Assembly (NCBI GenBank): GCA_963805085.1
Contig: CAWDTA010000003.1
Coordinates: forward strand, 32,001 to 96,000
Direction of reading: 5' to 3'
Length of the DNA stretch: 64,000 nucleotides
Source of the DNA: an uncultured Veillonellaceae bacterium
GTDB lineage: Bacteria > Bacillota > Negativicutes > JARBTT01
Below the pieces are notes generated by a model. It did not search any database, was not told where the DNA came from, and worked only from the letters and a program-made list of their open reading frames with translations. Position numbers and translations under genes: made by a program. Below, one piece after another: positions 14,162-19,072 of the stretch; within the stretch, counting starts at the first letter, position 1; every line of letters starts with the position of its first letter.

Positions 14162-15028
14162 ATGAATCTTAACCTTAATTGTATACTCTGTAATTTAAAG
14201 CAAGTCTTAACAGTAACAGATTTGGTCAAACTTGATTCTGTTAGCCGAGAAATAATTATGCGTGATGTTCTTGGATATTTACATGAAACTAATTTTAGAA
14301 GATCTAACCCTGAAGTTATAAAGGGTACGTGGGACATTATTACGAAGCATATAAAAAATACTAATCCTTACAGAGAAATAAAAAATTACTACAATCGTGA
14401 AATTATTAATATTGCTGACAAGGTAAGAAATATAATTAATGATTCGGACGATAAGTTCATGGCAGCCTTAAAAATTGCTATTACAGCGAACTTGATTGAC
14501 TTTGCTGCTAGTCATACTTTTGACGCAAAAATGCTGTTTGAAAAAATAAATTCTATTAATGAGCAAAATATGCCCATTGATGATAGTAAAAAATTATTCG
14601 AAAATTTAAAGAACGCAAAAACTTTGCTGTACTTGGGGGATAACTGCGGCGAAATTGTTCTTGATAAGATTTTTATCGAATACATACACAAAGTATTTCC
14701 GAATATTAAAGTTTATTTTGGTGTAAGAGGCGAGCCGATTGTTAATGACGTTACAATAGAAGATGCAGATATGGTGAAAATGGAAGAAGTGGCTGAAGTA
14801 ATTACTAATGGCGATGGTTCGCTTGGTACGGTAATTGAAAAAACGAGTTTAGTTTTTAAAGATGTATTTTATAAAGCTGACGTAATTATTGCTAAAGGTC
14901 AAGGAAACTATGAAAGCTTGAGCGAAATCAATCGCAGTCATATTTTCTTTCTTTTTATGGCAAAATGTAATGTTGTAGCAAGTTCATTGAACGTAGCTAA
15001 TCTATCAATAGTTTGTTGTGAGAATTAG
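14162..15028 (+). CDS. DUF89/ARMT1-like metal-dependent phosphatase
   Basis: CxxC N-terminus, ANLID, GDNCGE, PIVND, KGQGNYE. Confidence 0.88.
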   Translation: MNLNLNCILCNLKQVLTVTDLVKLDSVSREIIMRDVLGYLHETNFRRSNPEVIKGTWDIITKHIKNTNPYREIKNYYNREIINIADKVRNIINDSDDKFMAALKIAITANLIDFAASHTFDAKMLFEKINSINEQNMPIDDSKKLFENLKNAKTLLYLGDNCGEIVLDKIFIEYIHKVFPNIKVYFGVRGEPIVNDVTIEDADMVKMEEVAEVITNGDGSLGTVIEKTSLVFKDVFYKADVIIAKGQGNYESLSEINRSHIFFLFMAKCNVVASSLNVANLSIVCCEN

Positions 15029-15304
15029 ATAAGGCAATATTTATACTTACATAAAAACAGGGACAGGGGACTCAAATCCAAACACAGGAAGTGAGTCCAT
15101 GTCTCGTACATCTATTTCAACAATCCACAATTTTATTAAAAATGTTTTTCAACACATCCAGAGTATGCACTTAGCAATTTGAAAAAAGCAATCTGGTAAT
15201 ATGTCAAGCCCATAAAAAATAAATTTTGTAAGCAATCCGTAAAAAATGGGTGCACTAAACAAGCTTCTTCTTCAAAACAAAGAAAAAGTAAAATAATGGA
15301 ACTA

Positions 15305-16585
15305 TTAAATTTGGCTTACTCTACTTGGAGAGTAAAGCTGATGGTTGACCAGCAATCCAAAAATCAGCCGGATGAATTTACGAGCAGTAAGTGCGAGTGC
15401 GCGTTTGTGCTGATGAGTTTTAACTTCATCATACTTTTTCTGGTAAAAAGCTGCATATTCAGCTAAATGATTCTTTACATGGCTTGCAGCTTCAATTAAA
15501 TAGTATCTGAGATAAGTATTGCCAGCTTTTGAAAGGATGGTATCATCGGCTCTGAAATTGCCAGATTGGTTTTCACGCCAGACAAGACCAGCATATTTAG
15601 CAAGAGCTTCCTGAGACTTAAAGGCCTCAATAGAACCAATCTCAGCAATAATGCCAGCAGCATAAACCGGACCAATTCCAGGAATGGATAAAAGGCTTTG
15701 GTAAGCGTTAGGATCAAGTCCCCGAAGCGTTTTCTCAATAGCCTTATTGATAGCCTTCATTTCAGATTCATAGGCTGAAATAAGGTTAAATGATGAGGCG
15801 ATAGAGATAGTTAAAGGCTCGTATAAACATTTATCCAATCGGTAGGAATTGCGAGCGGCTTGCTGTAGTAAAGAAGCTGTGTGTTCAGGATTTGCAAAAC
15901 GATTTTTGCCTTTTTTACAAATGTGTTCAATTAGTGCTGCCATCGGCATGTTAGCGATATCTTCGGTAGAAAGAAAATCAGTTAAAACCGAAGAAGCGGC
16001 AGCGCCATAGTTATTAGAAAAGGGCTGCTTATCATCGTCGAGAATAGAAAACTCACTAAATTTAAGAAAGATGTTTGAAAGCATATAGGTTTTCTCACGA
16101 GTAAGAGAACGAGCTATATGTAATCGATGGCGAGTTAGACGCTGCAAAGCTAAAAATTGACTGCCGCGCCAAGGAGCAGAGGTAATTCTGCCAACTCTAG
16201 CAAAATCAGCGATAATAAAAGAATCAATTGCATCAGTTTTGCCTAGACCGATATAAGACTTTTTGTAATTGGCAACCATCTTGGGATTTATACAGTAAAC
16301 ATGAGTGTCAAATGGCATCAATAATTCACAGGAAGATAAGTAGTTAGCTATGTGAATACCATAGAAAGATGTAGATTCTAAGGCAACAACCAGCTTATTA
16401 AGATCATGATTTTCAGAAAAAAAATCATGAAACTTTTTAGCCATTTCAACTGCACCTGGTTGATTATTGGGCACAGTAAATCGCAACAGTTTTTGCTCTT
16501 CAAAATCAATAGCGCAAACGACATTTTCGCGGGAACTTATGTCAATTCCCACAAACAAAGTAGAAAGAAGATCCGCCTTCTTCAT
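15305..16585 (-). CDS. IS110-family transposase/recombinase
   Basis: DEDD RuvC-like residues GIDIS, LESTS, KTDAID; C-terminal SIPGIG and QSG serine. Confidence 0.95.
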   Translation of the reverse strand: MKKADLLSTLFVGIDISSRENVVCAIDFEEQKLLRFTVPNNQPGAVEMAKKFHDFFSENHDLNKLVVALESTSFYGIHIANYLSSCELLMPFDTHVYCINPKMVANYKKSYIGLGKTDAIDSFIIADFARVGRITSAPWRGSQFLALQRLTRHRLHIARSLTREKTYMLSNIFLKFSEFSILDDDKQPFSNNYGAAASSVLTDFLSTEDIANMPMAALIEHICKKGKNRFANPEHTASLLQQAARNSYRLDKCLYEPLTISIASSFNLISAYESEMKAINKAIEKTLRGLDPNAYQSLLSIPGIGPVYAAGIIAEIGSIEAFKSQEALAKYAGLVWRENQSGNFRADDTILSKAGNTYLRYYLIEAASHVKNHLAEYAAFYQKKYDEVKTHQHKRALALTARKFIRLIFGLLVNHQLYSPSRVSQI

Positions 16586-16649
16586 AGAAATGTCACCACC
16601 TTTCTGGCTGAGAATAAGAAAGATAGAAAAGGAATACCCTGATCTTATT

Positions 16650-16918
16650 CACTGACCGCAGCCTCGCATAATAAGCATTCATCTGTGAAAGTAAATTTGC
16701 TGGAAAGCTTTCGCCAAGAGACGCAACATCTGTGTAAGCGGTATTTGATGAATAAGGCAGGCGTCAAGCTTTAAAAGCAATAACCAAAAGGTTTCGCAAG
16801 GAGGATAAGACGTTACCTTTGCTAAAATCTCTTAGAAATATTTTAGCATCAAGGGATTCCTTTAAGCATTAAAAAATAAAAAATAAGTTTTGTAAACAAT
16901 GGCGGATTATTGTTTACA
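16650..16918 (-). ncRNA. Putative IS110 bridge RNA
   Basis: Structured non-coding left end. It has a match to the target flank (16798-16805) and a 12/13 complement of the donor right half (16663-16675). Ends are approximate. Confidence 0.6.
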
Positions 16919-16945
16919 AAACTTATTATACGAGGAGGAATTAAA

Positions 16946-19072
16946 TTGAACTTTTTTAAGAATCGTTTAAAAGTAGATGTTGGAGTGGATACCAACATGA
17001 AAACGGAGACGAAAAGTTTCTGGGGTATACGGAATCGACTAATTGTCATATTTTTGGCAATTACTTTTATTCCTTTGATCGTAGTGGGGTTTTTTATAGA
17101 TTGCAACATACGTAGCAGTGCGCAAGCAGATTTCACTACAGCGACTACGCGTGAGGTAACTCAAGTTGATAATGCAATTTCTATATTTTTTGACGGAATG
17201 AAGAAGAATACTAAAATGTTGGCTGAGAGTCCTAGCATCCGGCGGATGGATGGAAAGCTTACCTTATATATGGACAAGACTGGTGGGGCGGATGGCATGG
17301 CGCCAATGAAGCCTTTAGAAACAGGGGGATATGAAGCGAATCTTTATAGTACTTTCGGGCAGGTTATAAAGGCGCATCCGGAAGTATCTACAATTTCTTG
17401 GGGAACTTCGGACGGAGGATACCTTCAATATCCGGCTATACCACGAAAAGCTGGTTACGATTCTCGTGCTAGAGATTGGTATAAGGATACAATCAAGCAA
17501 CCGGATAAATTATTGTTAACCGATCCTTTTTTAACATCTAAAGGCATCCCTACAATCGGTGTTTTTACAACTGTTCGAAATCAAGACAATACGATTAAAG
17601 GTGTTTTGGGCTTTAATATTGATTTGCCTGTAATTACAGAAATGATAAACAATATGAAGATGGGAAAAACTGGGTATGTAATTCTTCTTGATTCCCATGA
17701 TACAATAATCGCCAATCCAAAGAAACCAGATATGAATTTCAAAAATATTAAAGAAATGCAGATTGATGCTTTTAATGATATCAATAGTCTTGCTGGAACG
17801 TCTGTCGAAGTAACAATTGATGGGGTAAAACACCTTGCAAATGTAGTGGTATCGCCAACTACGGGGTGGAAATACCTTTGTTTGGTCGATGAGAATGAGG
17901 TGTTTTCTCAGTCGATTAGACTTCGACAAGTGATAATGGTTGCCACGTTTATTACTATTCTCATTGTGTTAGTCATTGCATTTTTACTGTCAAATCGAAT
18001 TGCAAAACCGTTAGTTACAATGGTACAAGTTTGTGACGAACTTGCTGCCGGTGATTTTCGTGATAAACCACGTCAAATGCTGAGAAAAGATGAAATTGGT
18101 CAATTAGCCGATGCTCTAGTAAATATGCGGGGGAGTATTCGTACGGTTTTTAAGCAGGTCAATGAATCGGCTGAACAGGTGGCGGCATCTTCGGAGGAAC
18201 TAACTGCCGGGGCAGAGCAGTCGGCGCAAGCTATTAGTCAGATAGTCGGAGCAATTAGCGATGTGGCACACGGAGCAGAGCAGCAATTGAAAGCAGTAGA
18301 CGGAACATCGGCAGTGGTAGAACAGATGTCAGCTGGTATTCAGCAAGCCGCCGCTAGTGCTAACCAGGTAGCCGGTATTTCATCGCAAGCCGCAGAAAAG
18401 GCAAGAGACGGCGATATGGTGGTGGAGCAGGCTGTTAGTCAAATGGAACATACTGAACAAAATGTCAATAAATCTGCACAAGTCGTTGCTAAGTTGGGCG
18501 AAAGGTCTAAAGAAATCGGGCAGATTGTTGATACGATATCTGGAATCGCTGGGCAGACCAATCTACTGGCGCTTAATGCCGCGATTGAAGCTGCCAGAGC
18601 CGGAGAACAGGGAAAAGGATTCGCCGTTGTAGCGGAAGAAGTGCGCAAGTTGGCGGAACAGTCACAAGAGGCGGCAAAACAAATTGCTGCCATGATTAGT
18701 GAAATTCAGGGTGATACAGATAAAGCCGTTGTCGCCATGGACGAAGGTACCCGCGATGTCAAAGGTGGGACGGAGGTTGTCGTTAAAGCAGGTCAAGCAT
18801 TTAAGGAAATTAGGGTTTTGGTAACGGAAGTTTCAGGACAAGTGAAGGAAATCTCTGCTACTATGCAGCAAATGGCCAGCGGTAGTCAGCAAATCGTAGC
18901 AGCTGTGAAAGAAATTGATGGGCACAGTAAAATGTCGGTTGGAAAAGCCCAGGCAGTGTCGGCGGCTACAGAAGAACAATCGGCCTCCATGGAAGAAATT
19001 GCTTCATCCAGTCAGAGTCTTGCTAAGTTGGCACAGGATCTTCAAACAGCCGTCAGTCATTTCCGGGTTTAG
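16946..19072 (+). CDS. Methyl-accepting chemotaxis protein (dCache + HAMP)
   Basis: Two TM segments, YDSRARDWY cache motif, [38 protein letters not shown]; TTG start after AGGAGG. Confidence 0.95.

Follow-up and report, generated by a model that had tools for sequence, protein, structure and literature searches.

Several insertion sequences (IS) belonging to the IS110 family form the background to the locus described here. The natural target of IS621 from Escherichia coli is reportedly the repetitive extragenic palindromic (REP) sequence, as the title of Choi et al. 2003 has it, and IS492 of Pseudoalteromonas atlantica is said in a 2007 title to excise precisely from a gene. In the mycobacterial group of IS900, IS901 and IS902, insertion takes place in one orientation beside a ribosome-binding site (RBS), IS900 lying between the RBS and the start codon. 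The window analysed here is a 64,000-nt stretch of DNA from an uncultured Veillonellaceae bacterium (contig CAWDTA010000003.1, positions 32,001 to 96,000, corresponding to C3:32001-96000 of the 4.2-Mb assembly GCA_963805085.1; the C1, C2 and C3 coordinates given below for the element's own genome refer to the same assembly). At 15187..16934 on its minus strand it carries a complete IS110-family element, inserted at the 5′ edge of the Shine-Dalgarno (SD) sequence of a methyl-accepting chemotaxis protein (MCP) gene. We consider it highly probable that this is an intact, recently active IS110-type IS with RNA-guided target choice. In the literature searched we did not find SD sequences described as natural targets of such elements, nor this choice of target attributed to a guide resembling the anti-SD.

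Bridge RNAs, in the available part of Durrant et al. 2024 (PMC11208160), have a target loop whose 5′ side carries the target top-strand sequence over 8-9 nt including the core and pairs with the bottom strand; the 3′ side of this loop is complementary to 4-7 nt of the top strand. IS110-type elements have a long non-coding region upstream of the transposase gene (tnp) and IS1111-type elements downstream of it, according to the available part of PMC11187229. Judged by analogy, the architecture and proposed mechanism of the window element are those of an ordinary IS110-type bridge-RNA element. It resembles IS621 in its DEDD and Tnp domains, in the long non-coding DNA of the left end that precedes tnp, in the CT core shared by the two junctions, in a sigma-70 promoter across the joined ends (here as sequence only), and in loops with a 5′ side equal to the top strand and a 3′ side that is its complement. 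Unlike IS621, it has a distant protein (E 5.3e-9) of which only the C-terminal part aligns well (426 aa, against 328 aa in the solved chain), its target is an SD sequence, and its left end opens with a 19-bp hairpin and a U-run. It differs from IS900 as outlined above in its position at the 5′ edge of the SD sequence with the SD-to-start spacing kept, from the IS900 group in its hosts (Bacillota rather than Actinobacteria), and from IS492 in being inserted upstream of a gene and not inside it. An open reading frame (ORF) termed hed, located on the strand opposite the IS900 transposase and lacking an RBS and start codon of its own, is described in the available part of PMC8141618; an RNA-guide explanation for IS900 was not found in the literature searched. 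The window element shares with CazIS110-1 of Caloranaerobacter azorensis its multiple copies, a (here candidate) bridge RNA and a Bacillota host, as far as the available part of the preprint goes (10.1101/2025.10.25.684509). No link of IS110 elements or bridge RNAs to SD targeting was found in the literature searched, the available parts of which include bridge-RNA and seekRNA papers without their supplementary target-motif tables.

The element and the gene beside it comprise the following features.

15187..15188, minus strand: core dinucleotide CT (AG on the plus strand) at the right-end junction; the right ends of three copies all read GATTGCT and then T.
16933..16934, minus strand: core dinucleotide CT at the left-end junction; on the plus strand, the first AG of the MCP AGGAGG.
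15305..16585, minus strand: transposase (bridge-recombinase) gene, 426 aa, the only long ORF of the element.
16933..16938, plus strand: SD sequence AGGAGG of the MCP gene, left intact, 7 nt before TTG.
16946..19072, plus strand: MCP gene with a TTG start; ORF intact, with dCache_1, HAMP and MCPsignal domains.
15029..15186, plus strand: native upstream intergenic region of the MCP gene, 158 nt, contiguous with the MCP gene in a metagenome contig (X1, below).

Counted with the CT core at both ends, the element is 1748 bp long (1746 bp plus one core). Read on the minus strand, 15187..16934 opens with CT-CGTATAAT and closes with TTGACA-TATTACCAGATTG-CT. Its own genome contains three full copies that differ at 2 positions in 1748; the identity (99.9%) covers exactly element positions 1-1748, and the flanks of all copies diverge directly outside CT on both sides. 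Differences at only 2 positions among three full copies point to recent activity of the element. One 6930-nt contig from metagenome run X1, belonging to a related organism, is an empty allele of the insertion site: it holds the left flank up to 15187 and the MCP side from 16942 with no IS, and 13 letters (AGGGGGAATTTAA) stand between the two flanks. Its three pieces differ from the window at 18/538, 7/54 and 53/659 letters, and its SD sequence is slightly different from that of the window. In run X4, the multi-copy IS is represented by unitigs whose ends fall at 15187 and about 16936-16940. None of the sequencing runs searched contains this strain; the share of sampled words found was at most a tenth in every run, and no RNA run was listed among the matching ones.

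A preliminary description of this DNA, made from the sequence alone, had placed the element at these coordinates, and they are right, since the copies, the X1 empty allele and the X4 unitig ends agree. It had named other copies and an empty allele as the test of its ends and shared CT core; the own-genome copies have the same ends, and X1 joins the flanks without the IS. Its assignment to the IS110 family is confirmed by the domains PF01548 and PF02371 in the element's ORF, and the AGGAGG that it saw staying beside the MCP gene does stand there, at 16933..16938 with 7-nt spacing to TTG.

Both junctions show a 2-nt core rather than a longer target duplication, and the base after the right-end core is T in 24/29 relatives. 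The non-coding DNA amounts to 349 nt upstream of tnp and 118 nt downstream, which places the element in the IS110 type. Terminal inverted repeats were not noticed on reading the ends (CT-CGTATAAT... and ...CCAGATTG-CT), no formal search having been made. A fourth copy (C2:1949416, L004) stops at element position 1017, where it is cut by other DNA. When a syntenic empty site was sought in 41 genomes (the own genome and 40 relatives), the left-flank gene was found in G027 (82% identity) and G013 (78% identity), with no MCP gene after it.

All seven left-end junctions in the own genome (three full copies, the truncated copy, a 230-bp mini-element, a solo left end of about 130 bp and a 46-bp relic) lie at an SD sequence: read outward, they continue with CTCCT or TTCCT, followed after 5-8 nt by the reverse complement of a start codon. 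In this arrangement, called SD context below, each of the seven start codons opens an ORF of at least 101 aa, and these ORFs range from 101 to more than 662 aa. The neighbours are a Na/sulfate symporter, a short-chain dehydrogenase, an enolase-superfamily protein, a HAD hydrolase, a second MCP and a 101-aa ORF without a Pfam family; besides the window MCP, 5 of the 6 adjacent ORFs scanned gave a Pfam match. Relatives show the same preference. The Pelosinus propionicus DSM 13327 record (which holds locus L038) has 15 left-end junctions, all abutting CCTCCT-like flanks and 13 of them with an ORF of at least 66 aa at SD spacing. Long flanks were available at nine loci of a first set of relatives, seven of which are in SD context. 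A further survey of 80 loci with transposases 43-78% identical, 5 of them repeating first-set loci, left 47 insertions flanked by 220 nt or more, 38 of which are in SD context, after exclusion of 9 loop matches without a recognisable left-end boundary within 300 nt and 7 flanks that were too short. The other own-genome copies and most relatives' copies thus sit at an SD sequence in the same orientation; together with the relics, they bear out the earlier proposal that insertion is directed at the RBS. In the window and in the other own-genome copies the insertion lies 5′ of GGAGG, not between the RBS and the start codon. The hosts of the element family are Negativicutes, Clostridia, Bacilli and one Chloroflexia metagenome-assembled genome (MAG).

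Decayed copies were seen at SD sequences as well. In Propionispira raffinosivorans and P. arboris (L069, L070), a 22-nt left-end relic, CT-CGTATAAT...AAAC, stands directly upstream of AGGAGG-N7-TTG of the same gene; it is an old insertion scar kept at the SD sequence. A search of a large genome-contig collection with the exact 20-nt left-end pattern gave four matches, namely one known locus, the two Propionispira relics and an Ignavibacteriales MAG, the last of which is probably due to chance, about one match being expected by arithmetic for a 20-mer in 596 billion bases. At C2:1165300-1166540 (L005/L006), the 230-bp mini-element consists of a left end with a complete target loop and a right end, with no donor loop and no tnp, and could be a non-autonomous derivative; near it lies the solo left end. 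Both are about 75% identical to the window IS, and each stands at the SD sequence of one of two adjacent genes (HAD hydrolase and enolase-superfamily).

The non-coding left end of the element contains the features of a candidate bridge RNA.

16586..16932, minus strand: non-coding left end, candidate bridge RNA; predicted fold of -92 kcal/mol, z-score -4.6 against shuffled sequences; conserved in relatives.
16758..16819, minus strand: predicted target-binding loop module, with outer stems and, around an inner hairpin, two sides of 11 nt each (5′ and 3′).
16798..16808, minus strand: 5′ side of the target loop, putative left target guide UUAUCCUCCUU, anti-SD-like.
16766..16776, minus strand: 3′ side of the target loop, putative right target guide UUUUAAAGCUU, whose AAAG complements the core CT plus TT.
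16663..16675, minus strand: putative right donor guide CUUAUUAUGCGAG, which complements 12 of the 13 nt that open the element, core included, the mismatch being a possible G-T pair.
16728..16734, minus strand: candidate left donor guide CACAGAU, in the same sense as CCAGAT near the right end.

As read from the DNA, the geometry of the left-end loop appears to match that described for bridge RNAs. Across 17 relatives, 86.3% of the loop-stem cells are paired, against 29-41% with slid partners, and compensatory changes occur in 8 of the 15 loop-stem pairs. Covariance model R1 of the loop matched 71 of the 80 further loci, about 175-260 nt upstream of tnp, and gave no match in other IS110 lineages. 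The guide is an SD complement in all 71 loop matches, ending in a C(C/T)CC(T/A)-type motif, and relatives' guides carry CACCUCCU. The eight 16S genes of the host end with GGATCACCTCCTTTCTA, a tail that contains CACCTCCTTTCTA, and CCUCCUU is common to this tail and the element guide. The candidate left donor guide offers a 5-nt same-sense match, which by eye changes along with the right end in three subgroups.

We propose, by analogy with the pairing geometry of IS621, that the 349-nt left end would encode a bridge RNA. In its target loop the 5′ side (UUAUCCUC-CU-U) has the target top-strand sequence and so would base-pair with the target's bottom strand. Read in the orientation of the IS, the preferred target would be (N)TCCTC-CT-T, the other strand of which, A-AG-GAGGA, is an SD sequence; an SD sequence is thus what guide pairing would select. 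Recombination would occur at the CT/AG core, as a result of which the gene would keep its AGGAGG and start spacing and the element would always stand divergent to the gene.

Guides and flanks were found to vary together. Agreement between the left guide and its own left flank extends to 270 of 377 positions (198.8 ± 7.7 with shuffled flanks) and that between the right guide and its right flank to 121 of 240 (98.8 ± 5.7), with 0 of 5000 shuffles as high in either case, counts that weigh less than they seem to and are descriptive only, as related sequences are not independent and significance is therefore overstated. The excess of left-guide matches is concentrated at the variable positions -4, -6 and -7, where the own and all-against-all match rates are 0.93/0.65, 0.69/0.31 and 0.74/0.34, respectively; the signal of the right guide lies at +1 to +3. 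Examples of guide and flank are CCCCCU with CCCCCT, CACUCCU with CACTCCT, and AUCAUCCU with ATCATCCT. In copy c3, a single-base guide deletion lengthens the run matching the copy's own flank only from 5 to 6, which is suggestive without being decisive. Separately, in one subgroup of Lachnospiraceae-type loci (e.g. L104, L107, L109) the 5′ loop side ends in ...CUCCA and not ...CUCCU, and the flank still has the CT core, so that a guide need not match the core at its second position.

Further IS110 lineages in the own genome bear on the same point. Two of them (A/B, whose members are 87% identical to each other, and C) have 25-32% protein identity to each other and to the window element.

C2:302561-306025 (L058), C1:298345-301812 (L059) and C3:12244-15726 (L060): loci of IS110 lineages A/B and C.

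By reading, their loop sides are also anti-SD-like (UCUCCUU, CUCUCCUU, AUCACCU). Element 'B' has the loop side UCCUCUCCUU and the flank CTCTCTCCT, followed by TTG and a 222-aa ORF, and element 'C' the loop side UAUAUCACCU and the flank GTATCACCT, followed by ATG and a 252-aa ORF; the 3′ loop side fits the right flank in both. Three lineages in one genome, at 25-32% protein identity, thus carry the guides CCUCCUU, CUCUCCUU and AUCACCU at matching SD sequences. A fourth type, 'D/E', has the guide ACGUUCCUU and the site ACGTTCCTT, which is not an SD sequence; as judged from this one type, an element whose guide is not an SD complement does not sit at an SD sequence. We suggest tentatively, giving it a little short of an even chance, that anti-SD mimicry by the target guide is a recurrent, possibly convergent IS110 strategy in Bacillota and beyond.

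Four side observations concern these lineages and the guide target. The ORF downstream of 'C' resembles, by eye only, an IS200-type transposase. Copy 'A' (L058, about C2:303600-305400) has a direct repeat of about 31 nt, ATTTACATTTCATTATGAGTCAATTCGAAGT, on both sides with spacers of about 35 nt and no SD context, which looks like a CRISPR array split by the IS. The DNA that cuts the truncated copy L004 starts with a GGGGACGTTCC-type motif that is also the flank of IS 'D' (C2:1471668), and is probably the end of another mobile element that serves as a target of D/E-type IS110. Finally, the DNA of the 16S anti-SD tail (CACCTCCTT; e.g. C3:372822+) is a near-perfect guide target in the orientation opposite to an SD sequence; all eight 16S tails are uninterrupted.

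Besides the non-independence mentioned above, several points weigh against target choice by an anti-SD-like guide RNA. The loop structure was drawn by hand from one fold and then tested, and RNAalifold on a wide 251-column alignment returned 3 pairs and no useful consensus structure, probably because subgroups were misaligned. An ungapped search for donor guides did not recover the left donor candidate, which is no clean contiguous match. Specific pairing is short, consisting of about 5-6 nt, the core and some 3 nt more, and several insertions have a poor guide match (L022, with a run of 2; L029; L147/L148). A naive 16-nt score combining the two guides failed to single out SD sites (15-45% in SD context) and gave way to per-position covariation. 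No clear SD context was found for 9/47 survey insertions and 2/15 Pelosinus junctions. We infer the transcription, RNA ends and activity of the element from its DNA.

The strongest rival is survivorship, i.e. insertion at any short CTCCT-like sequence followed by loss of the intragenic copies, which we regard as possible and somewhat doubtful. It draws on the own-genome baseline: 27.5% of AGGAG, 34.6% of AAGGAG and 50% of AGGAGG sites are in SD context, the whole range up to AAGGAGG-type sites being only 27.5-53.5%, and yet all seven copies are, where 35-50% would be expected from the motif alone. The motif alone does not explain seven out of seven, and loss of intragenic insertions probably adds to the pattern. 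The span of specific pairing (only about 10 bp), the absence of SD enrichment with the full-length guide score and the position of IS 'A' in a CRISPR-like array without SD context are likewise what survivorship would lead one to expect. It is opposed by the guide itself, an SD complement in every one of the loop matches and in three lineages; the SD motif is thereby specified, and selection can only sharpen the pattern. Survivorship is accordingly complementary to RNA-guided choice of SD sites and not exclusive of it.

The ends of the element also carry the two halves of a promoter and a hairpin.

15202..15207, minus strand: outward -35 hexamer TTGACA of the right end, separated from the core by 13 nt.
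16925..16930, minus strand: inward -10 hexamer TATAAT of the left end, separated from the core by 2 nt.
16882..16927, minus strand: 19-bp hairpin into which the -10 hexamer extends with its last bases; a U-run comes after it, at 16870..16881.

When the ends are joined at one CT, TTGACA is followed by a 17-nt spacer (13 nt of right end, CT and CG) and TATAAT, both hexamers matching the consensus at 6/6 positions. TTGACA-N13-CT is present in 29/36 relatives' right ends, with the motif exactly at the contig end in 3 more, and CT-YR-TATNAT in 17/26 relatives' left ends; the motifs are kept where the rest of the ends diverges. The split promoter was likewise read in two other IS110 lineages of the own genome. 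By analogy with IS621, for which the available parts of PMC11208160 and PMC13626964 are our sources, the joined ends may be active as a sigma-70 promoter. The preliminary description had pointed out the TTGACA-17-TATAAT sequence at the joined ends, and the conservation of both hexamers in relatives agrees with it. Its reading as a whole stood in family, ends, promoter sequence, retention of the SD sequence and RBS targeting; the likely cause of that targeting, an anti-SD-like guide, was absent from it.

The left-end hairpin with its U-run looks like an intrinsic terminator, and the stem is retained with different sequences in relatives. An Rfam scan of 15000..17100 with E up to 1 gave only chance microRNA-like matches, to the hairpin. 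We suggest, with low confidence, that transcripts from the junction promoter would start inside the hairpin stem and in this way escape the terminator. In the model borrowed from IS621, the donor loop would recognise the joined ends, and the joint would assemble the consensus promoter and drive bridge RNA and transposase from the excised circle only.

Precise excision as an adaptive, reversible switch that restores native MCP expression, in the manner of phase variation, an idea raised by the preliminary description, is in our view improbable. The SD and coding sequences are indeed spared, the insertion parts the MCP gene from its native upstream region by 1746 bp, and precise excision of IS492, known to us from a title alone, would reportedly be a precedent. 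No outward promoter toward the MCP gene was found on the plus strand of the left end (promoter-like sites in the region, 6 against 6.9 in shuffles), so that MCP expression would depend on transcription crossing the IS antisense to tnp. The available part of PMC13626964 states that IS621 excision regenerates the original target site, which would suit a switch, but also that excision reached about 1% against 70% insertion in vitro, that it needs transcription into the left end, and that a terminator upstream of the left end abolishes it. Here the gene adjoining the left end reads away from it, so nothing reads into the left end, which itself opens with the terminator-like hairpin. For CazIS110-1, the available part of the preprint reports copy-out with the donor site preserved and the target site not regenerated (10.1101/2025.10.25.684509). 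As far as the analogy holds, the published work on both elements argues against frequent site-restoring excision. The target genes (transporter, short-chain dehydrogenase, enolase-superfamily, HAD hydrolase and MCPs) are unrelated, which looks like opportunism rather than regulation, and the relics of 22-230 bp at SD sequences, including the one common to two Propionispira records, indicate decay in place and not switching.

It is very improbable that the CCUCCU loop merely sequesters the tnp RBS as an anti-SD element while the protein alone recognises the target: the leader does hold anti-SD-like runs, and part of the tnp SD sequence (AGAAAGG) pairs with upstream UUCCUUUUCU in the predicted fold, but the loop changes together with the flanking DNA, the tnp SD sequence stays GGAGG/GGTGG throughout, and the hairpin over it uses a different upstream segment. 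That pairing was seen in the predicted fold of 16586..16640 (minus strand), a similar U/C-rich run is kept in relatives, and it may dampen translation of tnp.

The transposase contains the domains DEDD_Tnp_IS110 (PF01548, E 1.9e-29, residues 12-169) and Transposase_20 (PF02371, E 1.5e-22). All four full-length IS110-type proteins of the own genome (25-32% identity) keep D15, E70, D118, D121 and S341 unchanged. By analogy with IS621, D15/E70/D118/D121 would form the catalytic tetrad. S341, which we take to be the catalytic serine of the Tnp domain, lies in Q340-S341-G342, invariant in the own-genome IS110 proteins and aligned with E-S-G of IS621. The only solved relatives found were IS621 (8wt6, E 5.3e-9), ISCro4 transposases and one further IS110-type chain.

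If the target is chosen as proposed, a natural bridge-RNA target would be the short upstream motif that bacterial genes share most widely and not a host-specific repeat (REP, attC, transposon ends). SD targeting may explain how one IS family occurs across Negativicutes, Clostridia, Bacilli and a Chloroflexia MAG, and would explain why the copies spare coding sequence and all point one way. Anti-SD mimicry, if true, would provide thousands of gene-sparing landing sites in any host with SD-led translation, in a fixed orientation in which host transcription never enters the guide-RNA end. Combined with this orientation, the terminator-like hairpin would leave integrated copies unexpressed until a rare excision builds the junction promoter. 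For annotation, an IS110 element abutting a start codon would be read as a promoter-uncoupling insertion and not as gene disruption. For engineering, the family offers dozens of natural guide/target pairs on one scaffold, and SD-like sequences and 16S gene 3′ ends would be natural off-target classes to be warned of.

Three minor observations concern the DNA on either side of the element. The program-made ORF list begins the MCP ORF at TTG 16910, inside the left end of the IS and 12 codons before the real start; ORF callers may wrongly extend a neighbouring gene into an IS in this way. A 68-nt stretch of the native upstream region (15070..15137), which is not repeated in the own genome and has no Rfam match, has counterparts of 76-81% identity at two places in the relative G034. 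At 15134-15137, some 177 additional bases are present in the X1 contig.

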